This document shows, piece after piece, positions 6,431-64,000 of a DNA stretch of 64,000 bases. The notes beneath the pieces were generated by a model. The model ran no database searches, was not told the origin of the DNA, and saw nothing but the letters and a program-made list of their open reading frames with translations. This DNA comes from Rubripirellula sp. (GTDB lineage: Bacteria; Planctomycetota; Planctomycetia; Pirellulales; Pirellulaceae), in the NCBI GenBank assembly GCA_029245125.1, contig JAQWPZ010000208.1:1111-65110 (forward strand), given 5' to 3'. The translations under genes and the position numbers were made by a program. The first letter of the stretch is position 1. Every line of letters starts with the position of its first letter.

Positions 6431-8884
6431 TCAAATATTATTCGCGATATCAGAGCGGTCATCACCCAACGCACCCAACGCCCGATACAACTCAGGTTTT
6501 CGGACCGGCTTGGAAACGTAGTCATCCATACCGGCGGCGAGACAACGCTGCCGATCTCCTTCCATCGCATGGGCAGTCATCGCGACGATGGGGACGCGTG
6601 TCCGTGATTCCGCTTCGAGCTCACGAATCCGCCGGGTCGCCTCCAGACCGTCCATCATTGGCAATTGAACATCCATCAAAATCACATCGAAGCTTTTCTT
6701 TCGATATGCCTCCACAGCCTGATTTCCATCCTCCGCCACGTCGACTCGATGCCCCCATTTGGTGAGCAAACCGACAGCCATTGTCTGGTTTGCCTTACCA
6801 TCCTCGACTAACAAGATATGCAATGGCCGCATTGCCTGACCTGCCTGGAAGGCCTTCTTCGATATACCAGAACCCCATTCCTCGTTTGGTGTTCCAGCTG
6901 AATCTTCGTGCGTCGTCATTGCAGACAAGACGTTCACCAACTCATTGGGCTTCACCGGTTTGAACAACTGGGCAGCGACGCCAAGCTTCTTGCAGCGTTG
7001 AACATCCTCACTCCGCATGCTGGATGCCAGTAAGATCGTCGGAACCCGACTCAATACTTCATCACCGCGAATCAACTCGATCAGCTCAAAGCCGGCCATG
7101 CCATTCATTTCGGGATTACAGATCAGCACTGGTAAACGCCGTGAAACGGATTCCTTTAACGCCTTCAGCACAGATGTCGCAGATTCAAATACCGTACACG
7201 AAACACCATGCTGCTTGAGTTGGTCCGCAATTTGACGACAACTCTCTGCATCGCTATCGGCCACCAAGACCTCGAGGTGCGTAAGATCTGGCAACTCGTG
7301 AATCACTTGAGGCGTTGCGGGTTGCATATAAATGGTAAAGAAAAATGCACTCCCCTCGCCGACAGAACTCTCGACCCACAATTCGCCATCCATTGCGTGA
7401 ACGAGTCTCGCGCTAATCGCCAAGCCTAGTCCTGTTCCACCGTATCGCCGAGTGCTAGAGGTATCGGCTTGGCCGAACGCGCTGAAGATCGACTCCAACT
7501 TGTCGGGGGAGATGCCGATTCCATTGTCTCGGACACTAAACAGCAGTTTGACGCCGGTCGCATCACGCTCATCCAATTGCACGTCGACAAAGACTTCACC
7601 AAGCTCAGTAAACTTAATCCCATTACCGACTAAGTTCATCAAAATCTGTCGTACGCGAGCTGCATCGCCAGCCAACCACCGCGGTACCAATGCATCAACA
7701 TGCCAAGCCAGTTCCACTTGGCGACCATGCGCCTTGACGGACAGTGATCTTAACGTCGCACCAATGACTTCACGCACGTCAAGATCCGCTATATCGAGAT
7801 CCAAGGTACCCGAATCGATCCGTGAAAAGTCGAGCACCTGATCAAGCAAGGACATGAGGGACTCAGCCGAATCCGCAACGGTCTGCACGTAATCACGTTG
7901 GACCGCGTCCAAGCTGGTTCCCAAAACCAAATCGGTCATGCCGATAATGGCGTTCATTGGCGTCCGAATTTCGTGACTGACGTTGGCTAAAAAATCATTT
8001 TTAACCCGGCTCGCTTCCTCCGCGATATCTCTGGCACGTCGCAGTTCACGATTGGCTTCTCGCAACGAATCACGGGCACCGGTCAACTCGGCCTCGGCCG
8101 TTTTCCGCGCCGAAATATCGGCAATCGTCGCTTGCAACAGCCTTCGATCACCGTGCGGCAATGGGACCAATCGAACCTCGCAAGGGATTGGCTGGCCCGT
8201 CGAATCACGATGGACCCAATCGAACACCATTCGCTTGCCGCTGAGTGCCATTTCGATCATCTCGTTGGCAAGCTCCGGCGTGGGAACGTTACCTGGCTGG
8301 AAAGGAGGGCTGAGCTCCGCGGGATGACACTTCACAATCTGTTCCCGGCTCATTTTGAACAGTTCTTCCGCCAGCGGGTTGGCGTCGATAAAACGACCCT
8401 CATCACAATCAAGCGTCACACATGCGTCGGGTGCGTGCTTGATCAAAAGCCGAATCCTAGCCTCACTCTCGCGTAATTCGATTTCGGCAAGTTTTTTCTC
8501 GGTGATTTCACGGGTGATTCCGCAGGTCCCGATCAACTGTCCCTGAGGATCTCGCATCGGCATGTTGCTAACCAACAGCCACATGGGACGCCCATCTTTA
8601 TCCTGAAGTTCTTCTTCCTGATTGAGAATGGGATCACCAGTTCGCAATACCTCTTGCTCATTCCCAACAAACTGCTTCGCGACCTCATCGCCCCAGAGGT
8701 CAGCATCAGTCTTTCCAATGCAATCCTGCTGTGGGTACCCCACGATCTCTGCGAAAGCAGAATTAACTCCAACGAAGCGTCCGTCCCGGTCCTTCCAGAA
8801 AACCGGGTCAGGAATACTGTCGACGAGTGATTCCAGCAGGAAATGATCGCTCTGCGAGGGATCGGAATCTGGTTTTTCTGTCAT
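6431..8884 (-). CDS. PAS-PAS hybrid sensor histidine kinase with two receiver domains (BarA-like)
   Basis: Two PAS domains; H-box FLANVSHEIRTPMN; N-box NLVGNGIKFT; G-boxes DNGIGI and GGTGLGL. REC1 is degenerate (LICNPEM); REC2 is intact (ILMDVQLP). Confidence 0.95.
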   Translation of the reverse strand: MTEKPDSDPSQSDHFLLESLVDSIPDPVFWKDRDGRFVGVNSAFAEIVGYPQQDCIGKTDADLWGDEVAKQFVGNEQEVLRTGDPILNQEEELQDKDGRPMWLLVSNMPMRDPQGQLIGTCGITREITEKKLAEIELRESEARIRLLIKHAPDACVTLDCDEGRFIDANPLAEELFKMSREQIVKCHPAELSPPFQPGNVPTPELANEMIEMALSGKRMVFDWVHRDSTGQPIPCEVRLVPLPHGDRRLLQATIADISARKTAEAELTGARDSLREANRELRRARDIAEEASRVKNDFLANVSHEIRTPMNAIIGMTDLVLGTSLDAVQRDYVQTVADSAESLMSLLDQVLDFSRIDSGTLDLDIADLDVREVIGATLRSLSVKAHGRQVELAWHVDALVPRWLAGDAARVRQILMNLVGNGIKFTELGEVFVDVQLDERDATGVKLLFSVRDNGIGISPDKLESIFSAFGQADTSSTRRYGGTGLGLAISARLVHAMDGELWVESSVGEGSAFFFTIYMQPATPQVIHELPDLTHLEVLVADSDAESCRQIADQLKQHGVSCTVFESATSVLKALKESVSRRLPVLICNPEMNGMAGFELIELIRGDEVLSRVPTILLASSMRSEDVQRCKKLGVAAQLFKPVKPNELVNVLSAMTTHEDSAGTPNEEWGSGISKKAFQAGQAMRPLHILLVEDGKANQTMAVGLLTKWGHRVDVAEDGNQAVEAYRKKSFDVILMDVQLPMMDGLEATRRIRELEAESRTRVPIVAMTAHAMEGDRQRCLAAGMDDYVSKPVRKPELYRALGALGDDRSDIANNI

Positions 8885-8996
8885 GAACGAAGGGCCTTTT
8901 ATTGCCCTTCAAGTATAGCAAATTCGGCCGCGTAACGGGTATCCTCGGGCTGTGCTTTTGCGAACGTCCAGCCGAAAAGCACTCACGTCACAAACA

Positions 8997-10088
8997 CTAC
9001 TCAAAATGACCGCCTTCGGTGGCGGAAAATTCGGCGTAGACAGGCAAATGACTCGTCACGGCCTCCGCTTGGACGGTCGTTAAATCATACACCCGCATCA
9101 AGTCAATCACGCCACCACGCCCGACAAATTCACTCGTCACCGATTGACGAAACAACAAGTTGCTCGTTTGGTAGCGTCCGAAGATGTCGGTCGGTCGACT
9201 TTCGACCGAGGCCTTCATCTCCGAATCCTCGAATGTCCCCAATAAATAGGCATCATCTGCCTGAAAAAGCCCCGCTAACACGACGTCGTCTTCGCTGCGA
9301 CCATCGTTTGTCACACTTTTCATGACGGCTGGAAGCAAGGCAACTTCCTGGGGTGCCCTGGCCAAGTCAATTCGTACATTGATCAAAGAAAAAGTCCAGG
9401 CACTTGCTGGCGGTGGTGTGGCGGCTCGAAACCAGCCCACCAGCGGATCGAACGTCATTTTATTCGCCGGATCCGCGACGCTGTAAGTTTGCCTCCGATC
9501 AACGACGACCCGCTGCGTATCGAACAAAAAGGCCAACTGCTCGGGTCGATCGGCGGGGCCTGTCGGCTTGCCAATCACATAGTCATATCGCCGACCCGAT
9601 TGATTGATAAAATCTACCAAACGAGGAATCAAATCCCGTTCGATCGAGGCGACCTGTTGCAACGCGACAATGTCGAATCCACCGATCACTCGAGCAATGC
9701 TCTGCCTGCAGAGCGGGTTGCGGAGCTTGGTCGGCCCAAAACCATCGAGTGCCCAAGCCGCGATCTTCAGCGGCTTATGCCGCGTGCCCGCCGGCGGGGA
9801 ACGCGTCGATTCAGTTGGCAGCACCCGATTTCGTGCCGCCGCGAACGGGTTGTCACTCCCCCCAAGACTCATGCTGGAAGTCAATGAGAGCTCCCCAGAG
9901 CTCAAAATCGGCGGTTCGTCGCCGTAGCTGATGAAGGTGGAATCCTCCAAGTCGCTTGTCTTGGGATAAACGGTTACCTCATCTAACCCTGCCACTTCGT
10001 AGTTGTTAAAGAACCACCAACCCCCACCTGCGAGCAGCAGCACAATCACACCCATCTGGATCGGATGGCCGCGGTCAGAATCAGACAC
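8997..10088 (-). CDS. Membrane-anchored endonuclease/exonuclease/phosphatase (DNase I-like) fold protein, catalytically degenerate
   Basis: N-terminal TM segment (GVIVLLLAGGGWWFF). The DNase I-like layout is recognisable (FDIVALQQV, EQLAFLF, SHLPVYAEF) but most metal ligands are substituted. Confidence 0.82.
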   Translation of the reverse strand: MSDSDRGHPIQMGVIVLLLAGGGWWFFNNYEVAGLDEVTVYPKTSDLEDSTFISYGDEPPILSSGELSLTSSMSLGGSDNPFAAARNRVLPTESTRSPPAGTRHKPLKIAAWALDGFGPTKLRNPLCRQSIARVIGGFDIVALQQVASIERDLIPRLVDFINQSGRRYDYVIGKPTGPADRPEQLAFLFDTQRVVVDRRQTYSVADPANKMTFDPLVGWFRAATPPPASAWTFSLINVRIDLARAPQEVALLPAVMKSVTNDGRSEDDVVLAGLFQADDAYLLGTFEDSEMKASVESRPTDIFGRYQTSNLLFRQSVTSEFVGRGGVIDLMRVYDLTTVQAEAVTSHLPVYAEFSATEGGHFE

Positions 10089-49842: not shown

Positions 49843-50691
49843 CTAATTTTTCGCCAATTGCTCCACGTAGGGCATCACATCCTCTTGGTAGCTGAACCCC
49901 GCATCAGGGCCCGCATCGACGAAGGACTTCACCAAGGCTCCGTTCTCGTCATAAATCAGAACAGCAGGAATCGAGATCAGCTTCGTTGCGGCAAAAACGT
50001 CATCACTCGGAGTTTCACTGATGAAGACTGGAAAACCGCTCGCTTGAACACTATCTAGAAATGCGATCACGCGTTCTTCGTAATAGTTTGGTGGTCGGCT
50101 TTTACGACCGTCGTAGTCCAAGTCGACCGCCATGCAACGGACCTTCGATCCATAGGTTTTGTGCAACTGCACCAAGCCCGGAAACTCTTTCAAGCACGGC
50201 TCGCATGTCAGTGACCACAGATCGACCACTGTCACTTTTCCATTCGCTGCAACCTCTTTCTGAATCGCTTCCCAGGTTGCGTATTGAATCGACGGTTTCG
50301 CGGTCGATTCACTGGAACTACTTTCCGGGATCTCCACGTTGGCCGGCATTTCAATGCCTCCCCCGCCACCATTTGATTCTTGGCTGTCTGATTCTTCGCG
50401 TTCGGGCAAGGCATCTCCAACTGGCAGTTCGAGCCCCCCACTGCCGGACGGCAATTGGACCTCATCACCCCCCGTAGGGAGTTCAATTCCTCCCGGTGCG
50501 TCTGTAGCTTCCGCCTCGATGACTCCACCTGCTGGCTCCGCAGGACCCGGTGGTGAAACGGTGATCGCTTCCGGGGAATCGGCTTCCCCGCATCCGACGG
50601 TAACCAGCATCCAACCGAAAAGGCATGAAACGACCAGGATGCGTGCCGATTGAGATTGAAATGCCGAGAAGTTTAAAAAATTGTTCATCAA
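49843..50691 (-). CDS. TlpA-family thioredoxin-like lipoprotein
   Basis: Lipobox-like LVTVGC; acidic low-complexity linker; VVDLWSLTCEPCLKEFP (CxxC); IPAVLIYD. Confidence 0.88.
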   Translation of the reverse strand: MMNNFLNFSAFQSQSARILVVSCLFGWMLVTVGCGEADSPEAITVSPPGPAEPAGGVIEAEATDAPGGIELPTGGDEVQLPSGSGGLELPVGDALPEREESDSQESNGGGGGIEMPANVEIPESSSSESTAKPSIQYATWEAIQKEVAANGKVTVVDLWSLTCEPCLKEFPGLVQLHKTYGSKVRCMAVDLDYDGRKSRPPNYYEERVIAFLDSVQASGFPVFISETPSDDVFAATKLISIPAVLIYDENGALVKSFVDAGPDAGFSYQEDVMPYVEQLAKN

Positions 50692-50842
50692 TCCTTCCTG
50701 AGTTTACTGGAGTTTTTGGTGATCCAACTATCTCCAATCGGCTAGATTGTAGCGAGTGACGAGCGTGGCCATACAATGCCAAACCGCTGCTCTCTACTTC
50801 TTTTCTCCAGCTCTCAAGGTACTCGCACCGGTGGATGGCGAC

Positions 50843-51463
50843 ATGTCAACGACCGAATTGGTTGTCGCCTCAAAGCGAGGCAACAACGAAGCGTTAGGCA
50901 GGTTGCTTGAGCAATACCACGGGTATCTGCTGATGCTATCGCACCGATACTTGTCCGAGCGATTACGGCGGCGTGTCGACCCTGCCGATATTGTGCAATT
51001 GACGTATCTCGAAGCAAAACGAGACTTACCGGCTTTTCGTGGCGAAACACCGGCGGAATTTGCTGGCTGGTTGCGAGGCATGTTGAAAAACAACGTCGCG
51101 ACCGCAGTGACGCGGCATGTGACGACGAAGAAGAGGTCCCTCAAACGCGAGGTCGATGCGTCGCCAGGGCGGCAAGGAAACGACTCGGGCGGAGGTGGGT
51201 GGATCCAACAGCTTCCCGGCAGCACCACCAGCCCCAGCGGCGTGGCCATTCGAGCAGAAGCCGTGATGGCGTTATTGGCCGCCCTCCATCAACTTCCCGA
51301 AACCCAAGCAGAAGCAATTCGATTGCGGTACATGGAAGGCTTATCACTGTCCGACATTGTGGACCGGATGGGAAAAAGTGACACGGCCGTAGCCGGTCTT
51401 CTCAAACGGGGCCTGCAAAAGCTGCGCAGCCTCCTCAATGACCAAGATTGTCCGTGGATTTAA
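50843..51463 (+). CDS. ECF sigma factor, planctomycete kinase-associated type
   Basis: ALGRLLEQYHGYL, RRRVDPADIVQ, AFRGET, GWLRGML, TTSPS, AIRLRYMEGLS, IVDRMGKS, LLKRGL. Start set at ATG 50843. Confidence 0.92.
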   Translation: MSTTELVVASKRGNNEALGRLLEQYHGYLLMLSHRYLSERLRRRVDPADIVQLTYLEAKRDLPAFRGETPAEFAGWLRGMLKNNVATAVTRHVTTKKRSLKREVDASPGRQGNDSGGGGWIQQLPGSTTSPSGVAIRAEAVMALLAALHQLPETQAEAIRLRYMEGLSLSDIVDRMGKSDTAVAGLLKRGLQKLRSLLNDQDCPWI

Positions 51464-51743
51464 TATCTTACTGCTGGAATTAGACTAGCCGCTTACACTC
51501 CAGACCCGATCTGCCCAACACCTGAAGCCTCCACAGCATTGACAAGAATGCAAGCATTTTTTCTCTCCGATGCTGCCGGCAGAAAATCCGGGATTCGAGT
51601 ACGACTTCTGCGCCTAAGTTGGGAAGATTCCCGACCTAATAATTGGCTCTCCTTGGTATCCTTGTATCGAACCTCACGCAACTGAGGAATTTTCCGCACT
51701 GGTGTTTGGGAAGCTCGCCCACCAGCAACGGCCCAATTCCCTC

Positions 51744-51769
51744 GACTCCAGGCTTTGACTCCAGGCTTA
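51744..51769. repeat. 13-bp tandem duplication (GACTCCAGGCTTT/A) abutting the kinase start codon
   Basis: Direct reading: 51744-51756 and 51757-51769; ATG at 51770. Confidence 0.8.
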
Positions 51770-53965
51770 ATGTCCGAATCTCCGCAAACCAACGATCCGC
51801 TTGACGAGGCATTTGCCGCTTACTTGCGATCCTGTGACGCAGGCGAAATTCGAAGCCGTGAGGATTTCTTGGCCCAGTTCCCTGAGCTGGCTGGTGAACT
51901 CAAGCAATTGATGGAAGCCGCCGACATGCTCGGCACCTTCACCGAACAGAAGACGGCCAGCCATGTCATCGATCCAGAAGGGAATCCATCCGACACGATC
52001 GCCACCAATGCGATAGATCACTCAGATCCTGACTTTGATCCCGAAGTCACCCTGCCCATCGCTACTCGTCAGAAGGGCGACCCAGGCCCAACACTCCCCT
52101 ACGATCTTGGTGGAAACTACCTGCTGCAAGAAGAACTCGGACGTGGCGGCATGGGGGTTGTCTACCTTGCCAAGCAACGGGAACTTGATCGTTTTGTTGC
52201 CGTCAAGATGATTCGCAGCGGTATGTTGGCCGGCAACAATGAAGTACGACGGTTCTACATCGAAGCCCAAGCAACGGCGCGACTGAGCCACCCAGGAATC
52301 GTCGGCATCCACCATTTCGGTCAACACGAAGGCCATCATTTCTTCTCGATGGAGTACATCGAGGGCACCGACCTGCAGCGTAAGATCAATACGGAAACGC
52401 TTTCACCAAAACAAGCGGCCCGCTACGTTCGAGATGTGGCGCGGGCCATCCATCATGCCCACCAAAAAGGGGTTTTGCACCGAGACCTCAAGCCTGCCAA
52501 TGTTCTAATTGATGAACAAGATTGTGTTCGCGTTACCGACTTCGGTCTGGCCAAACACATCGATACTGAGAGCAGTGTTACCGGTAGCGGTGCGGCGGTC
52601 GGCACACCGCACTACATGGCCCCCGAACAAGCCAGCGGGCACAGCGAACGCGTCTGCCGTCAAAGCGATGTCTATTCACTCGGCTCGATTCTTTTTGCTT
52701 CGGTTACCGGTCGCCCACCCATCATGGCCGACACGGTCATGCAAACACTGGTTCAAGTGATTCATGATCCGGCACCCTCCGTTCGATCAATCGGGACAGA
52801 GATCCCGGCCGACTTAGAAACGATCATCGCCAAGTGCTTGGAAAAACCGGTTGGTAAACGCTACAAATCGGCTGAAGCCTTGGCCGATGAACTCGACGCG
52901 TTTCTCGAGGGCCGCCCCATCAAAGCCAGACCTCGCTCCCGTATTGTCAAAGCATGGCACTGGATAGAAGGTGTCCCCTTGGTCGCGGGCTTGATGGGTC
53001 ATCGGATCTTACACGCATCCCCAGCACATCGCCGTTTCCAAAATGCGATGCTGTTGCTGATCCTACTGTTGACGCCCATCCTGATCGCTGGCGCCTTCAC
53101 GTTCTATCACTTCTACCGAAACGCCATTCCCGGCACGGTTCGTATCTACGGTGGCCCCGAGGGGGGGGAATACAACGACATCAGTGTCGAGATCGGCAAC
53201 CGAATTGCGAGAGCTCACGGTGTCGAAGACGATTTCTCGCGATCCAACGGCTCTTGGGCGAATCACAACGCCATTGTTGCTGGCGAAGTTGACTTAGCAC
53301 CAATGCAAGCGACCTCGATTCGTGGTGATGAACTTGGCGTAGTCGCGCCACTTTTTTACGAACTGCTGTATGTCTTGGCCCGGGAAGACTCTGACATTCA
53401 AACGATGCAGGACCTGAAGAATTGCCGGATCGCAATCGGTCCTCCCCAAAGTGGGTCCTACGCGACGGCAATGTTAGTTCTCAAATCACTTAACCTGCTC
53501 GAATCCAATCAACTTGAAGAGGGCGAGTGGGAACCACTCGCTGAACGCAAGACGCAATTGCCTGATGCAGCAATGATATGCATCGCCAGAAATAGCGATT
53601 TGATCGCCAAATTTCGGAACAGTGGTCGCTGGAGAATCATACCGATTCGAAACGGCGCCAAAATTTCTGATCGACATCCAACGCTCCGATCACAAGAAAT
53701 TCAAACGAGCGAATTTTTCGACGAGTCTCCAACGACGGCAAGCATTCCAACCATTGGAACAACCGCTTTCTTAGTCAGCTCTAAAGGTGCGTCATCCAAG
53801 TTGGTGCGAGCCTCACTCGAGGCTCTGTATTCCGATCCACCGCTTCGAGAAGATCTCATCTCGAAATCACTGGCTATCGAATTACTCGGCTTCGTCGCCT
53901 TCCACCCGGAAGCGCAACGCTACTTCACCGAACTGCTGCAAGAAAATCGCAAGTCCGTCGAATAG
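51770..53965 (+). CDS. Transmembrane Hanks-type Ser/Thr kinase with a C-terminal TAXI/NMT1-like solute-binding domain
   Basis: LGRGGMGVVY, VAVKMI, HRDLKPANV, DFGLAK and GTPHYMAPEQ, then a TM helix. C-terminal GGPEGGEY...NGSWAN...GEVDLAPMQ...APLFYELLYVLAREDSDIQTMQDLK...IGPPQSGS resembles TAXI periplasmic binding proteins. Confidence 0.9.
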   Translation: MSESPQTNDPLDEAFAAYLRSCDAGEIRSREDFLAQFPELAGELKQLMEAADMLGTFTEQKTASHVIDPEGNPSDTIATNAIDHSDPDFDPEVTLPIATRQKGDPGPTLPYDLGGNYLLQEELGRGGMGVVYLAKQRELDRFVAVKMIRSGMLAGNNEVRRFYIEAQATARLSHPGIVGIHHFGQHEGHHFFSMEYIEGTDLQRKINTETLSPKQAARYVRDVARAIHHAHQKGVLHRDLKPANVLIDEQDCVRVTDFGLAKHIDTESSVTGSGAAVGTPHYMAPEQASGHSERVCRQSDVYSLGSILFASVTGRPPIMADTVMQTLVQVIHDPAPSVRSIGTEIPADLETIIAKCLEKPVGKRYKSAEALADELDAFLEGRPIKARPRSRIVKAWHWIEGVPLVAGLMGHRILHASPAHRRFQNAMLLLILLLTPILIAGAFTFYHFYRNAIPGTVRIYGGPEGGEYNDISVEIGNRIARAHGVEDDFSRSNGSWANHNAIVAGEVDLAPMQATSIRGDELGVVAPLFYELLYVLAREDSDIQTMQDLKNCRIAIGPPQSGSYATAMLVLKSLNLLESNQLEEGEWEPLAERKTQLPDAAMICIARNSDLIAKFRNSGRWRIIPIRNGAKISDRHPTLRSQEIQTSEFFDESPTTASIPTIGTTAFLVSSKGASSKLVRASLEALYSDPPLREDLISKSLAIELLGFVAFHPEAQRYFTELLQENRKSVE

Positions 53966-54158: not shown

Positions 54159-56075
54159 ATGACGACTTCGTACCAACCGAACGCAGGCAAGCAGCAGACG
54201 GACCTGCAAACTGCTTCTCCAAATGCTCGGTCCCATCAAGAATCTCTACGGAGCAAAATTGTACTGTCTGTGGCGGGGATTTTCTTGCTGTTTGTCGCAA
54301 TCGATGAAGTAGTCCGGCAGTATTTAATTCAACCTGAAATCGATGCCTTCGTTGAATTCAAATCAGCACAAGATGCGAATCGAGTCTTGGCGGCCTTGGA
54401 CAGCGAATCGAATCACTTGAATGTGCTCACGACAACGTGGGCCAATCAAATTCAAGCAAACGATTCCGATGCGGCCTGGAATGCTGATTTCACGAAACAA
54501 TGCTCGCCTAAAAACGCCGACTGGATCGCAACCGTTTCTCCAACCGGGCAATGGCGATGGATCGCGAAAAACAGCGAATCCAAGGTGTCTGAGTCAGCGA
54601 TCCAGGCATTTCAATCGGTCTTAGAACCAAGCAGCGATCCTCGTCGAAGTGATCCTCGTCGAAGTGGCACTCACGGCATTGCGCCACTCGGACCAGATTC
54701 GCTCGCGTTGTTTTCTCTAGCCCCGCTTCAAAAGCTTGGCAACGAACGGGGATGGCTGCTACTCGTCGCCCGAAATCTCGATGACGACTTGCTTGATGCG
54801 GTTCGAAACCAAACACAGGTCGCCTTCACCCTGCAAACGCACGCATCAGGTGATCGAGAACCAACGAGAGAGCGAAAAGATAATTCCAAACGGATCGTCG
54901 AAATACCAATTATCGCTCCCGTCGAAAACCAAGCTGGAGCATTCACTCTCGAACTCCCGCGAGAGTTCGTCGCAGGTTCGCAACGCACCACGCGTTTCGC
55001 TCGCAGCGTTTTCATCCTTGGCTCCGTGCTGGCCTTTCTGGTTCTGCTGCACAGATTGCACAGCCTCGTGATTCGACCGCTTAACACGATCCGCACAAAC
55101 ACCAATCGGTTGCCCAAAACAGAATCCAATCGCGACCCTCTGATCCACAAGGGCAACGATGAAATCAACGATCTGGCCAGGGCATTTGATGCGATGGCCA
55201 ATCGCGTTGAAGAAACAGAAAAACAACTGCACGAGCGACCAGAGGAAAACAGTTGCATTCAAGTCGCAAGCTCCGTGATCCACAATGTTGGAAACGTTCA
55301 AACGAACGTCAACAGTTTGATCGAAGCAGCTTGTGAACGAACCCGTCAACTCCGCATCTCACCACTGAAAAAACTTGCCGAACGACTTCGTTCCGAAGAG
55401 CCTGATGTGGCAATGCTCGAAGCAACACCGGATTACTTGGAACACCTCGCGGGATCGTTGCAATCAGATCAACAGTCGATCAATGAACTTCTTTGCACAC
55501 TGAATGATAACGTCCGCCATATTCGTGATATTATTCACGCGCAACAGCAACACACCGAGCCATCCTTAGAGATCTGTTCGATACCGGTCCAGGATTTGAT
55601 TGAAGAAGCCGTCGCGTGCTGCCGTGCCCGATTAGAGGCCGATGCAGTCGAGATTTCAATCAGCGGACAGCTACAAGTAGAGATTCGCAGCGATCGCTCC
55701 CTCATGCTCCAAACAATGATCAATTTAATCGGCAACGCGCGAAACGCGTTACGATCCATCGATTCCTCCAGGCGTCAGTTGCAGATTGACGTCCGTTCTG
55801 AGGGCGATCGAATCGAAATCGATTTCCAGGACAATGGTTGTGGTATCAACCCTGAAATATTGGATCGTATTTTCGATTCAAAATTTACGACACGAGATAC
55901 CGGAACTGGTCTTGGACTGCACTTCTGCGCAGTCACATTGAAAAACCTGGGTGGATCAATACGAGCTTCGAGTGGCGGATTGAATCAAGGATCTGTTTTT
56001 ACGATCGAAGTGCCGACATCCCTCGACAACCTCGTCCACTCGCCGCAGACAATTGCCTCAGGAAAGACATCATGA
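54159..56075 (+). CDS. Membrane sensor histidine kinase (CHASE4-like, HAMP, HisKA, HATPase)
   Basis: Two TM helices flank a CHASE4-like periplasmic domain. HAMP (GNDEINDLARAFDAM); H-box VIHNVGN; NLIGNA, DNGCGI, GTGLGLH. Contains an in-frame 15-bp duplication (DPRRS x2, 54636-54665). Confidence 0.92.
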   Translation: MTTSYQPNAGKQQTDLQTASPNARSHQESLRSKIVLSVAGIFLLFVAIDEVVRQYLIQPEIDAFVEFKSAQDANRVLAALDSESNHLNVLTTTWANQIQANDSDAAWNADFTKQCSPKNADWIATVSPTGQWRWIAKNSESKVSESAIQAFQSVLEPSSDPRRSDPRRSGTHGIAPLGPDSLALFSLAPLQKLGNERGWLLLVARNLDDDLLDAVRNQTQVAFTLQTHASGDREPTRERKDNSKRIVEIPIIAPVENQAGAFTLELPREFVAGSQRTTRFARSVFILGSVLAFLVLLHRLHSLVIRPLNTIRTNTNRLPKTESNRDPLIHKGNDEINDLARAFDAMANRVEETEKQLHERPEENSCIQVASSVIHNVGNVQTNVNSLIEAACERTRQLRISPLKKLAERLRSEEPDVAMLEATPDYLEHLAGSLQSDQQSINELLCTLNDNVRHIRDIIHAQQQHTEPSLEICSIPVQDLIEEAVACCRARLEADAVEISISGQLQVEIRSDRSLMLQTMINLIGNARNALRSIDSSRRQLQIDVRSEGDRIEIDFQDNGCGINPEILDRIFDSKFTTRDTGTGLGLHFCAVTLKNLGGSIRASSGGLNQGSVFTIEVPTSLDNLVHSPQTIASGKTS

Positions 56076-58033
56076 CTTCGGATGCCGAGCCAAGACGAAT
56101 ACTCATTGTCGACGAACTTCAGGAGATCCACGATTCATTCAGCCGGATTTTTGCTGAGCAAAACGAGAACAAGGCAGTTCTCTTTGACTTCGAAACGAAG
56201 TTCCTCAATGCAGGAGAGGAGCAGAAACCGGTCTTTAAAGTCGGCGAAAAGACAATCGTCTATGAATTAGATCATGCCAAATCTGGCGAACAGGCATGTG
56301 ATTTGGTTCACCTGTCGATCCAAAACAATCGACCCTACAGTGTTGCTTTCGTTGACATGCATATGCCACCAGGCATGAATGGCACAGAAACAACAGAAAC
56401 CCTTTGGGGGATCGATCCGAACCTACATGTTGTCATCTGCACAGCCTACAGCGATCACGCGTGGGAACATGTGCTCGATCGGCTGGGACACAACGATCGA
56501 TTACTGCTTTTGAAAAAGCCCTTTGAATCAGACGAAGCAAAACAACTCGCGTTAGCTCTGAGCGAGAAACACCGAATCGCATCGATCCAAGAGCGAAAAG
56601 TTTTCGACCTGGGACGCGAAGTTGAACGCCGGCGTCGCGCGGAAGAAACGATGCGGGACATGGCTCACCGAGATGCGCTCACGCAACTACCCAACCGCCC
56701 CTACCTGATCGAAAAACTGACGCAAATCGTCCAGCGACAACATCAGGACAAGTCGCCCCAACATGCCGTTCTTTTCTTGGACCTTGATCACTTCAAAATG
56801 ATCAACGACAGTTTGGGACACGATGCAGGTGATGATCTATTAAATCAGGTCGCGACCAGGCTGAAAGAATGTGTCCGCGAACAGGACACAACTGGCCGGG
56901 CCAGCGAAGAGGGTGAAACAGTGCGATTAGGTGGCGACGAGTTCGTCGTACTACTCGAATTCCTGGAAGACTCTCAGGACGCGTTGACCGTCGCGCATCG
57001 AATTGTCAAGCGAATCTCTGAACCGTTTTCTCTCGCCGGACGCTTGGTCAACGTCGGCACCAGCGTTGGCATCGCCTATATCGACGATCGCGTCTCTGAT
57101 GCTCATGAAGCACTTCGCAATGCCGACACCGCTATGTACCGTGCCAAAAACTCGGGACGCGGCCAATTTGCTGTCTTCGATCAAACAATGCACGAGGACA
57201 TCGTTGCTCGACTTGAGTTAGAAAACCAATTACGCCGCGCGGTCGAAGCCAAAGATTTCCAACTGAACTACCAACCGATTGTTAACTTAAACACCGGAAC
57301 AGTGCAGGGTGTCGAGGTTCTAGTTCGCTGGACCGCTGACAGCGGACGAGTCGTCTCACCTGCTCAATTCATTCCATTGGTCGAAGATCTTGGACTCATT
57401 TCTCAACTTGGAGAATGGGTTTTGGAACAAGCGATGAATGAGATGACCGAGTTGATGAAAGAACACGGAATCGACGATGTGTATTTGGGTGTCAATGTAT
57501 CTCAACTGCAACTAAGCGACCCCTTCTTCCTTGATCATCTGGAGCGGATCATCCAGCGAACGGGCTTTGATCGCAGCATGCTCAAAATCGAGATGAACGA
57601 ATCTGGTAACGTGCGATCCGCAGAGCAAACTTTCCACACACTACTCGAGCTGCACGATTCAGGAGTTGGCATTCAGATTGATGACTTTGGGAAAGGGCAG
57701 TCATCATTGACATGCTTCCAAACCTACCCAATCGAAGCAGTAAAAATCGACCGAAGCTTCACTGCTTCGATCGCAACAGACCATAGCCATGCGGTGATTG
57801 CCCGCGCCATCGTTCAACTGGCCCACCACCTGAACGCCAAGATCGTTGCGGAAGGTGTTGAATCCGCCAACCAACTCGAATCACTACGAATGTGGGGCTG
57901 CGACGCAGCACAAGGATTCTTGTTCTCCCCACCGCTCACAAAAAAATCACTGGGGCGACTTCTGCAGGACCCACTCCAGAGTGAAGGCGTCCGAATGCTA
58001 CGCCGCGCTGCCCGCAATGCTTTTGTCATTTAG
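56072..58033 (+). CDS. REC-GGDEF-EAL diguanylate cyclase/phosphodiesterase
   Basis: REC with AFVDMHMPPG; DALTQLPNR, FLDLDHFKMINDSLGHDAGD, RLGGDEF; EAL domain with EVL, DDFGKG, KIDRSF and AEGVE. ATGA-coupled to the kinase. Confidence 0.95.
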   Translation: MTSDAEPRRILIVDELQEIHDSFSRIFAEQNENKAVLFDFETKFLNAGEEQKPVFKVGEKTIVYELDHAKSGEQACDLVHLSIQNNRPYSVAFVDMHMPPGMNGTETTETLWGIDPNLHVVICTAYSDHAWEHVLDRLGHNDRLLLLKKPFESDEAKQLALALSEKHRIASIQERKVFDLGREVERRRRAEETMRDMAHRDALTQLPNRPYLIEKLTQIVQRQHQDKSPQHAVLFLDLDHFKMINDSLGHDAGDDLLNQVATRLKECVREQDTTGRASEEGETVRLGGDEFVVLLEFLEDSQDALTVAHRIVKRISEPFSLAGRLVNVGTSVGIAYIDDRVSDAHEALRNADTAMYRAKNSGRGQFAVFDQTMHEDIVARLELENQLRRAVEAKDFQLNYQPIVNLNTGTVQGVEVLVRWTADSGRVVSPAQFIPLVEDLGLISQLGEWVLEQAMNEMTELMKEHGIDDVYLGVNVSQLQLSDPFFLDHLERIIQRTGFDRSMLKIEMNESGNVRSAEQTFHTLLELHDSGVGIQIDDFGKGQSSLTCFQTYPIEAVKIDRSFTASIATDHSHAVIARAIVQLAHHLNAKIVAEGVESANQLESLRMWGCDAAQGFLFSPPLTKKSLGRLLQDPLQSEGVRMLRRAARNAFVI

Positions 58034-62887: not shown

Positions 62888-64000
62888 CTAGGAGCCCAAC
62901 TCGACATCAATCTTGGCTTCGTCCGCAGCTTCGCGGAGTTTTGTCAGGGCCCTCGCCTCCAGTTGACGAATCCGCTCCTTGGTCACTCCCATTTCCTCGC
63001 CGACCTGCTTCAACGTCAGTGGCTCCGTTCCACGCCCCAGTCCGAACCGAGCCGTAATAATCTTTTGCTCGCGTTCGTCGAGGCGATTCAGGATTTTCGA
63101 TAGTTCACGCTGACGCGATCGTTGTACGGTTTCCTCGGCGTACGGATCGCGCCGATCGTCTTGGCGGGCGACAAACAATTCTTCGGTCGTAGTGCGAAAA
63201 CGATCTCGATGTTTGAATTCACTCGGAATCGTTCGAGCGAAGTTTTTCATAATCGCCCAAGACGCGTAGGTGCTGAACTTATTGCCACGCGAGTAATCGA
63301 ATTTTTCGACGGCGCGGATCAGTGACATGTTCCCATCGCTAACTAGCGCAAAGAAGTCGTCTGTACTAGCGACGTGTCGCTTCGCAATGGAGACGACCAA
63401 TCTCAGATTACTTTGCACAACCTTGTTTTTCACCAGCACAGCGGCTTCGTAGAGATCATCAATCTCATCCATCACCGCAGTCTTGCTGCCTTGGGTCTCT
63501 TCCAGACCTTCACGCAGCCTGCTCGCCTTGTGCTTCAAATAATTCATCTTGCGAAACAAGTGATATTCTTGTTCACGCGTCAGCAGTGCGACGTCATAGA
63601 GGGCCGCCAAATAACTCGGCAAGCCCGACGGTACACGCACCTTGCGGGGCGCGGAAGCAGGTTCGGGTACTGGCCCGAGGTATTCCGCTTCGCGGGTCGC
63701 ATCCTCAAAGTCCTCGTTGTAGATGTAATCTAGGGGCAGCTCGAGAATTCGCTCCATTCGCATGTCAAGCAAAATGCGTTGAATGCTGGTTCGCGTTCGC
63801 TTGAAACGCTTGCACAGCCGTGCCACCGAAGCACCGTGCACGTGCAACTTGAAAATCGCCCGTTTGTCTTCCTCCGTCAGTACTCCACGATGGTCAGGAA
63901 AGATCGCCAAAGCTCGATTTTCAGCGTCAAAATTCTTCAGCGTATACCGAATAGTCTCGGGACTCCGTTTCATTTGCTGGGCCAGTTGCCGCGTGATTTC
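62888..64000 (-). CDS. Sigma-70 family sigma factor with N-terminal HTH repeats (5' end beyond the window)
   Basis: Region 2 NLRLVVSIAK...GNMSLIRAVEKFDYSRGNKFSTYASWAI and region 4 TLKQVGEEMGVTKERIRQLE. The frame stays open to position 64000 (EITRQLAQQMKRSPETIRY). Confidence 0.9.
   Translation of the reverse strand, partial: EITRQLAQQMKRSPETIRYTLKNFDAENRALAIFPDHRGVLTEEDKRAIFKLHVHGASVARLCKRFKRTRTSIQRILLDMRMERILELPLDYIYNEDFEDATREAEYLGPVPEPASAPRKVRVPSGLPSYLAALYDVALLTREQEYHLFRKMNYLKHKASRLREGLEETQGSKTAVMDEIDDLYEAAVLVKNKVVQSNLRLVVSIAKRHVASTDDFFALVSDGNMSLIRAVEKFDYSRGNKFSTYASWAIMKNFARTIPSEFKHRDRFRTTTEELFVARQDDRRDPYAEETVQRSRQRELSKILNRLDEREQKIITARFGLGRGTEPLTLKQVGEEMGVTKERIRQLEARALTKLREAADEAKIDVELGS

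Follow-up and report, generated by a model that had tools for sequence, protein, structure and literature searches.

The window analyzed here, a 64,000-nucleotide stretch of Rubripirellula sp. DNA (contig JAQWPZ010000208.1), encodes a Hanks-type Ser/Thr kinase that continues, past a single transmembrane helix, into a solute-binding domain of the TAXI type (TRAP-associated extracytoplasmic immunogenic; TRAP, tripartite ATP-independent periplasmic transporter). We propose that this protein is a one-pass membrane receptor kinase in which the TAXI domain acts as a periplasmic sensor outside transport, and that it signals by phosphorylation to the extracytoplasmic function (ECF) sigma factor encoded next to it. 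We put the probability of this reading at about 0.6. Fold, pocket conservation, phylogeny and gene context all lend good support to the co-option of the TAXI domain as a sensor. For a link between kinase and sigma factor the support is solely their conserved adjacency, and it is phosphotransfer along this link that we infer.

The protein is encoded by a single open frame on the plus strand that runs free of stops from a TTG at 51755 or an ATG at 51770 to 53965, giving 736 or 731 amino acids, respectively. The ATG at 51770 is favored as the start since it agrees with the homologues and with the called product of 731 residues (P0007). Residue numbers in this report are those of the 736-residue frame. 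The gene and its parts are as follows.

51770..53965, plus strand: receptor Ser/Thr kinase with a C-terminal TAXI domain (open frame, Pfam, NCBIfam, homologues).
51770..52105, plus strand: N-terminal extension, residues 6–117 (homologue alignment, full-length AlphaFold2 model).
52106..52939, plus strand: Hanks-type kinase domain, residues 118–395, with all catalytic motifs (Pfam, motif reading).
53042..53110, plus strand: single transmembrane helix, residues 430–452 (hydrophobicity, full-length model).
53117..53944, plus strand: periplasmic TAXI / NMT1_3 Venus-flytrap domain, residues 455–730 (Pfam, NCBIfam, PDB profile, model, Foldseek).

The kinase domain matches Pfam Pkinase over residues 124–378 (E 3e-52) and, judged by its catalytic motifs, is intact: GRGGMG129, VAVK151, HRD242 (as HRDLKPAN), DFG262 and APE289 are all present. 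Residues 430–452 form the only strongly hydrophobic stretch of the protein. The sequence HRR precedes this helix on its N-terminal side, which suggests that the N-terminus is cytoplasmic and the C-terminus outside. In the full-length AlphaFold2 model (predicted local distance difference score, pLDDT, 83.3), an N-terminal three-helix element is followed by a disordered linker, the kinase and one long helix at residues 423–456. The latter is continuous, crosses the membrane and stops four residues before the first TAXI strand. Since it runs nearly into that strand, the transmembrane helix appears in the model to be joined almost rigidly to the TAXI domain, and the kinase and TAXI sides look tightly coupled.

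By profile searches and structure modeling, the C-terminal part is a complete and genuine two-lobed TAXI-type solute-binding fold. It matches Pfam NMT1_3 (PF16868) over residues 467–726 and model positions 4–287 of 289, with 50.7 bits against a gathering cut-off of 27; the match to NCBIfam TIGR02122 (TRAP_TAXI) covers residues 440–726 and positions 11–318 of 320 and, at 71.2 bits, falls under the cut-off of 84.35. The C-terminal 301 residues alone match solved TAXI proteins by sequence (E 2e-7). When a profile of 21 sequences of the domain was compared with the Protein Data Bank (PDB), it aligned end to end with 1us4 and 8u79 (E 4e-27) and with 8s4j and 9ibo (E 4.5e-20), and also matched 9oz4, 4ddd and 9ibp. 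The AlphaFold2 model of the domain, built on the alignment of these 21 sequences, had a pLDDT of 93.6 and a predicted template-modeling score (pTM) of 0.90, with both lobes and the hinge predicted confidently. Foldseek against the PDB returned TAXI proteins for all of the top seven chains (VcGluP, Ehrlichia 4ddd, TtGluBP and VCA0144; E 5e-19 to 2e-15, template-modeling (TM) scores 0.70–0.76), and other binding-protein families started only at E 1e-9. Stand-alone TAXI subunits have about 300–350 residues, whereas here the fold is the C-terminal domain of a 731-residue kinase. The initial annotation of this stretch had read from the translation an intact cytoplasmic Hanks kinase, one transmembrane helix and a TAXI/NMT1-like extracytoplasmic domain, and all three are borne out by these results.

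We examined the ligand pocket by mapping it onto that of the glutamate-binding protein VcGluP, using HMMER alignments and the contacts described for VcGluP (PMC11574862); the numbering of the PDB chain is offset by 28 from that of the paper. The equivalent positions are listed below, where percentages refer to 142 kinase-fused members of the family.

VcGluP Y45 corresponds to Y473; Y in 100%.
VcGluP S75 corresponds to S500; S or T in 98%.
VcGluP Q93 corresponds to Q518; Q in 97%.
VcGluP E125 corresponds to E536; E or D in 100%.
VcGluP G156 corresponds to G567; G in 99%.
VcGluP D157 corresponds to S568.
VcGluP H123 corresponds to F534; F or Y in kinase-fused members.
VcGluP Y200 corresponds to I608; I or V in kinase-fused members.
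VcGluP M201 corresponds to C609.

In VcGluP, the Tyr, Ser, Gln, Glu and Gly contacts bind the amino group and the alpha-carboxyl group of glutamate (PMC11574862). Their equivalents are kept in 97–100% of the kinase-fused members while the identity of the domain to the window protein drops to about 25–35%. The kinase-fused family has in addition a conserved set of its own, namely S568, W592, C609, S614, H641 and R645, which is not shared by a sister group of proteins with a C-terminal tail (described below). Ligand binding has thus probably been retained, with a head group that is amino-acid-like or a carboxylate, a statement about the class of ligand and not an identification of it. The domain might instead have given up small molecules to become a module for dimerization or protein contact, or a sensor of a macromolecular or envelope cue. 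The modest Pfam score, the sub-threshold match to TIGR02122 and the lack of nearby transport or catabolic genes hinting at a ligand would be in keeping with such a change, but the persistence of the ligand contacts at such low overall identity and the high confidence with which both lobes and the hinge are modeled make it improbable.

The gene context and the phylogeny of the domain both point away from transport. By Pfam, no DctM or GltS gene is present in the window from 43.7 to 64 kb or among ten further flanking open reading frames (ORFs) of the related loci L003–L006. Twenty-three related loci were also screened with the five neighboring proteins of the window, a screen that was unable to reveal a permease. 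The window neighbors, among them a glycosyltransferase, an amylase-like protein, a sulfatase and a U32 peptidase, include no transporter or catabolic operon and give no hint of the ligand. The genome has one TAXI-type (DctM-type) permease, and this adjoins its own canonical TAXI gene on another contig (C314). The kinase-fused TAXI domains are phylogenetically separate from that canonical protein. The fused domain could still be a membrane-tethered binding protein that feeds a TRAP or GltS-type transporter, with the kinase reporting on transport. Membrane-anchored TAXI binding proteins and TAXI-transporter fusions do exist (PMC12344293), and the genome does have the one permease. However, that permease is already served by a TAXI gene alongside it, neither DctM nor GltS was found in the window or the ten ORFs, and in the tree the canonical protein branches apart from the clade of fused domains, so that we regard this alternative as very improbable. 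The initial annotation had proposed a transporter binding protein co-opted as a receptor for an organic acid or amino acid, signaling through phosphorylation to a sigma factor. Its co-option part stands on the TAXI fold, the conserved contacts, the separate clade and the lack of a permease in the window; the identity of the ligand and the signaling from kinase to sigma factor did not gain comparable support.

To place the fused domain among its relatives, homologues were collected in several ways. A word-seeded search with the C-terminal part returned 110 proteins at 35% identity or more, and all 110 have both Pkinase and NMT1_3. Nearly all are 700–830 residues long, and the annotations of the set mention no more than a kinase or a TAXI receptor; the named genera are Rubripirellula, Stieleria, Novipirellula, Roseiconus, Rhodopirellula, Neorhodopirellula and Allorhodopirellula. 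When 1.84 billion cluster representatives were searched exhaustively, 963 matched, 220 of them at E<=1e-10. Among the best 150 representatives, a regular-expression test marked 37 as apparent kinase fusions, one of which (P0201) failed a later hidden Markov model (HMM) check; the others comprised about 58 tail-bearing proteins of 400–500 residues, 12 proteins the size of a binding protein and 36 fragments. By hand count, about 65 of 200 sampled Pirellulaceae genomes carry the domain within an open frame of at least 640 residues, mostly once per genome. The complete frames in 16 metagenome loci all retain HRD and DFG. When kinase fusions outside Pirellulaceae were sought in 400 genomes from across the phylum, the ten best long-frame candidates, from other planctomycete families, proved to have no kinase or other Pfam domain. 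As far as sampled, the kinase-TAXI architecture is confined to Pirellulaceae.

The phylogenetic tree was built from HMM-verified full-length sequences, with about 30 fragments and unclear sequences left out. All 56 kinase-fused domains fall on one side of a single branch with a Shimodaira–Hasegawa-like approximate likelihood ratio (SH-aLRT) support of 97. On the other side are 58 proteins with the C-terminal tail and the canonical TAXI protein of the genome, the latter on a long branch. The simplest reading of this tree and of the distribution is one fusion event in a TAXI-like lineage that had already left transport.

Several observations were made on these relatives. In one metagenome-assembled genome the kinase-TAXI gene is split (L032:6989-9308, plus strand, frames 6989-7774 and 7782-9308), and at G519:C167:4855-5730 an in-frame TGA lies within the domain; these copies are either decaying genes or assembly errors. 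The sister class, of about 400–500 residues, has a short cytoplasmic N-terminus, a transmembrane helix, the TAXI-like domain, a second transmembrane helix and a conserved coiled-coil tail of about 120 residues, which has no Pfam match and the consensus ..QKERLD.FL.ET..IE..Q....L..L.EVT.IKL.AL.ELT.E.LRGDQ.F.IFL.QC..L. Two copies from this genome were examined.

G000:C128:28204-29589, minus strand (the same as L082:1096-2481, minus strand): sister-class protein.
G000:C182:9441-10940, plus strand (the same as L083:1297-2796, plus strand): sister-class protein.

Neither of these two copies has a TRAP permease adjoining it, and the class looks like another TAXI-based receptor. Tandem TAXI proteins with two to four domains also occur, among the cluster representatives P0189, P0206 and P0233 and in L114 and L119. 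P0233 has two TAXI domains followed by a pseudopilin domain of type II secretion (T2SSG).

The presumed output of the receptor is encoded just upstream.

50843..51463, plus strand: ECF sigma factor of the planctomycete subfamily TIGR02984 (ORF open from a GTG at 50756, likely start the ATG at 50843).

The match to TIGR02984, at 214 bits against a cut-off of 183.75, is the best NCBIfam match of this protein, in line with the ECF gene that the initial annotation had placed directly upstream of the kinase. The spacer between the two genes (51464-51769) is 306 bp long, compared with about 100–120 bp in relatives such as L001 and L085, and it holds no plus-strand ORF of 80 or more residues and no recognized feature. 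Among the 16 related loci with enough upstream DNA to judge the neighbors, 12 have an orthologous ECF gene directly upstream; the orthologues are 43–85% identical to that of the window and are mostly better conserved than the kinase. No separate anti-sigma gene was found beside the ECF-kinase pair in the window or in these 12 of the 16 loci.

Direct phosphorylation of an ECF sigma factor by a neighboring Hanks kinase is proven for EcfP/PknT and EcfK/PknS, and in EcfK residues of the linker are phosphorylated as well (PMC13147305). In these ECF43 proteins an uncharged STTA or QTTA replaces the acidic DAED of sigma2.2, and the charge is gained by phosphorylation of Thr (PMC13147305, PMC8999054). 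The published kinase-linked groups of planctomycetes, ECF59, 61, 62 and 217, are untested and may work differently (PMC8999054). We aligned the ECF of the window with its 12 orthologues (13 sequences; sigma2.2 of L004 is masked). All readable orthologues keep R-R-x-D-P/A-x-D-x-V-Q in sigma2.2, with DPAD in the window protein, so the acidic residues that ECF43 lacks are in place here. The ECF43 mechanism of EcfP/PknT therefore does not carry over directly. The linker between sigma2 and sigma4 is extended; in it KRS is invariant across the 13 sequences, and the TT of TTxKRS and an S/T-S/T-S/T-P-S motif are conserved. Judging from these sequences, phosphorylation of the linker would be the most economical hypothesis for the control of the sigma factor.

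The proposed pathway would then run as follows. The flytrap would close on a small ligand whose head group resembles an alpha-amino acid or is a carboxylate, and closure would alter the activity or the dimer state of the kinase across the membrane. The kinase would phosphorylate the adjacent TIGR02984-type sigma factor, the likely sites being the conserved Ser and Thr residues of the linker (TTxKRS and S/T-S/T-S/T-P-S) and not sigma2.2. The sigma factor would then turn on a small regulon, plausibly including the gene for a thioredoxin-like lipoprotein that diverges from it. In the nearest relatives, a downstream CHASE4 kinase and REC-GGDEF-EAL protein could tie the output to cyclic di-GMP signaling.

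Kinase and sigma factor could also be connected other than by phosphotransfer. The sigma factor may merely drive the kinase gene, with the substrates of the kinase elsewhere, for example among FHA-domain proteins, or the sigma factor may be bound by the three-helix extension at the N-terminus of the kinase, in the manner of an anti-sigma domain, and set free on signaling. The extension consists of a conserved three-helix element (15-68), a disordered linker and a conserved Pro-rich motif, TLPxxxRxxGDxGPxLP. The modeled helices are at 15-29, 35-41 and 43-68; pLDDT is below 50 over 59-97, and the confident part of the last helix ends at about residue 58. A conserved and confidently helical element of this kind, the absence of a separate anti-sigma gene and the acidic sigma2.2 motif all suit such a connection, as does the possibility that ECF groups besides ECF43 work differently (PMC8999054). 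FHA proteins are also at hand: an FHA-GAF histidine kinase occupies the ECF position in L005, and an FHA-GAF cyclase is encoded about 8 kb off in the window. On the other hand, the extension has no Pfam match and no anti-sigma signature, PknS bears a similar extension and yet phosphorylates its sigma factor (PMC13147305), and the Ser/Thr motifs of the linker are kept throughout the 13 aligned sequences with KRS invariant. On balance we consider a connection of this kind unlikely. No paralogue of the extension was found in the genome itself at E<=1e-3 or, by profile search, at E<=1e-5. By eye, a loose helix motif resembling it is seen in other ECF-paired kinases, to which we give little weight.

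Several findings weigh against a receptor kinase that acts on its ECF neighbor by phosphorylation in response to an amino-acid-like ligand. First, the positions that read the glutamate side chain in VcGluP differ here (H123 to F/Y, Y200 to I/V and D157 to S). The equivalents of Y45 and Q93 are present in 78% and 54% of all TAXI proteins (PMC11574862), and since they are so common they tell little about a specific ligand. Second, with DPAD kept, the sigma factor should bind core RNA polymerase without phosphorylation, so that its sequence does not require phospho-control. Third, the ECF neighbor is missing in 4 of the 16 loci (L003, L005, L091 and L097). In L005, the FHA-GAF histidine kinase (L005:5107-6801, plus strand) stands in the ECF position upstream of the kinase-TAXI gene; since FHA domains bind phospho-Thr, the receptor kinase of this locus may feed a two-component kinase. 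Fourth, searches in front of the sigma gene did not reveal a conserved promoter of the ECF type. When 11 upstream regions were aligned with MAFFT, no block was conserved, and a two-box k-mer search picked out at most 4 of 12 sequences, a number equal to that in shuffled sequences.

The remaining neighbors of the pair are as follows.

49843..50691, minus strand: thioredoxin-like lipoprotein of the TlpA/ResA type, carrying a CEPC motif and a long acidic linker rich in Pro and Gly, divergent from the ECF gene.
54159..56075, plus strand: CHASE4-HAMP histidine kinase, downstream neighbor.
56072..58033, plus strand: REC-GGDEF-EAL response regulator, whose start overlaps the stop of the histidine kinase gene by 4 bp.

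In 9 of the 16 related loci the thioredoxin-like gene keeps this divergent position, which makes it a candidate target of the sigma factor and member of its regulon. The CHASE4-HAMP kinase has no Pfam HisKA match; its candidate phospho-His lies in SSVIHNVGN. The pair that it forms with the REC-GGDEF-EAL protein is found downstream only in the four nearest relatives (L001, L002, L085 and L089). The remaining loci have sulfatases, PSCyt/PSD1/DUF1501 genes, a peptidase or the FHA-GAF histidine kinase in place of the ECF. Elsewhere in the window, 62888-63973 on the minus strand encodes a 361-residue protein of the sigma-70 family, with region 2 from residue 186 and a long N-terminal extension.

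Sixty-three ORFs of the genome encode Hanks kinases, and in at least nine cases ECF and kinase genes are neighbors. Among the other pairs, the four nearest have ECFs that match TIGR02984 with 130–227 bits, that on C173 alone being above 183.75, and a fifth matches weakly (53 bits). Four of the seven kinases examined are other ECF-paired kinases, and their C-terminal parts are TPR repeats or have no recognizable domain. Among those examined, the window kinase is the only one with a recognizable small-molecule-binding sensor, which agrees with the contrast that the initial annotation had drawn with repeat-type sensors.

A broader interpretation, which we offer as possible but doubtful, is that planctomycete TAXI-like domains form a transport-independent family of periplasmic sensors wired to several outputs. 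The kinase fusion, with its sigma factor controlled through linker phosphorylation and not through charge restoration in sigma2.2, would be one of these and the C-tail sister proteins another; the divergent thioredoxin-like gene would hint at a ligand tied to the thiol/redox or amino-acid status of the envelope. If true, linker phosphorylation would be a second mode of phospho-control of ECF sigma factors.

Very few bacterial Hanks receptor kinases have a known ligand, and none of the ECF groups linked to kinases in Planctomycetota has an experimental example. The kinase-TAXI family would be a tractable entry to both: its binding-protein fold is compact and confidently modeled, of a type for which thermal-shift screens routinely find ligands, and the likely output, the sigma factor, is encoded next door. 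The pair is present in cultured Pirellulaceae, among them Stieleria marina and Rubripirellula species, and the literature lists CAD76640.1 of Rhodopirellula baltica. With this family, the roles known for TAXI proteins would reach beyond transport into signaling, and the family could show how a kinase controls an ECF sigma factor that retains its acidic core-binding motif. It would not surprise a specialist; its value lies in how well it opens an untested kind of sigma control to experiment.

The closest structural relatives of the sensor are VcGluP (VC0430; 8S4J, 9IBO) and TtGluBP (1US4, 1US5, 8U79). They share with it the fold (TM-score 0.71–0.76, E ~1e-18), an end-to-end profile match and, where the amino and alpha-carboxyl groups of glutamate are contacted, the residues Tyr, Ser, Gln, Glu and Gly. 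In contrast, identity is about 20%, and they are free or anchored subunits whereas the window domain sits behind a kinase and a transmembrane helix, with no permease gene found nearby, other residues at the side-chain-reading positions and S568, W592, C609, S614, H641 and R645 of its own. The pairs EcfP/PknT of Vibrio parahaemolyticus and EcfK/PknS of Xanthomonas citri resemble the window pair in that an ECF gene adjoins that of a one-pass receptor kinase, an anti-sigma gene is absent, the catalytic domain of the kinase is preceded by an N-terminal extension and the linker between sigma2 and sigma4 is rich in Ser and Thr. They differ in the sigma factor (ECF43 with STTA or QTTA, compared with TIGR02984 with DPAD) and in the sensor (TPR repeats or an unknown domain, compared with TAXI), and the window pair is known from sequence alone.

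Fusions of Hanks kinases to binding-protein domains were described in 2005 by Krupa and Srinivasan, who reported a Streptomyces coelicolor kinase with an extracellular solute-binding protein and a Nostoc kinase with an ANF-receptor domain (PMC1262709). The design of kinase, transmembrane helix and Venus flytrap is the same, but those domains are of ABC-type classes and not TAXI, are from other phyla and have no ECF partner described. Since kinase and solute-binding-protein fusions have been known since then, the novelty is smaller than the initial annotation implied. In the mycobacterial GlnH/GlnX/PknG system, which responds to amino acids, a solute-binding protein also controls a Ser/Thr kinase; there the parts are three separate proteins with a soluble kinase, and here they are one polypeptide. 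A 2021 review of binding proteins in signaling gives GlnH/GlnX/PknG as the sole characterized Ser/Thr kinase stimulated by a binding protein. Table S8 of PMC11032199 lists the identical architecture as "Architecture 57" (Pkinase; TM; NMT1-like family), with CAD76640.1 and two other proteins that belong to the same bacterial group and stand under the group Pirellula. The table gives it without comment on fold, pocket, partners or distribution, and the main text of that paper does not mention it. Besides that table, our literature search found no paper combining both Pfam names, and recent papers on TAXI proteins (PMC11574862, PMC12344293) are silent on kinase fusions. The initial annotation had allowed that the architecture might already be both characterized and widespread; it is widespread within Pirellulaceae and has been listed, but is not characterized in that listing. 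The kinase-TAXI receptor, otherwise undescribed as an architecture, is a new variation on two known themes, the Hanks kinases fused to binding proteins and the pairs of ECF sigma factor and kinase.

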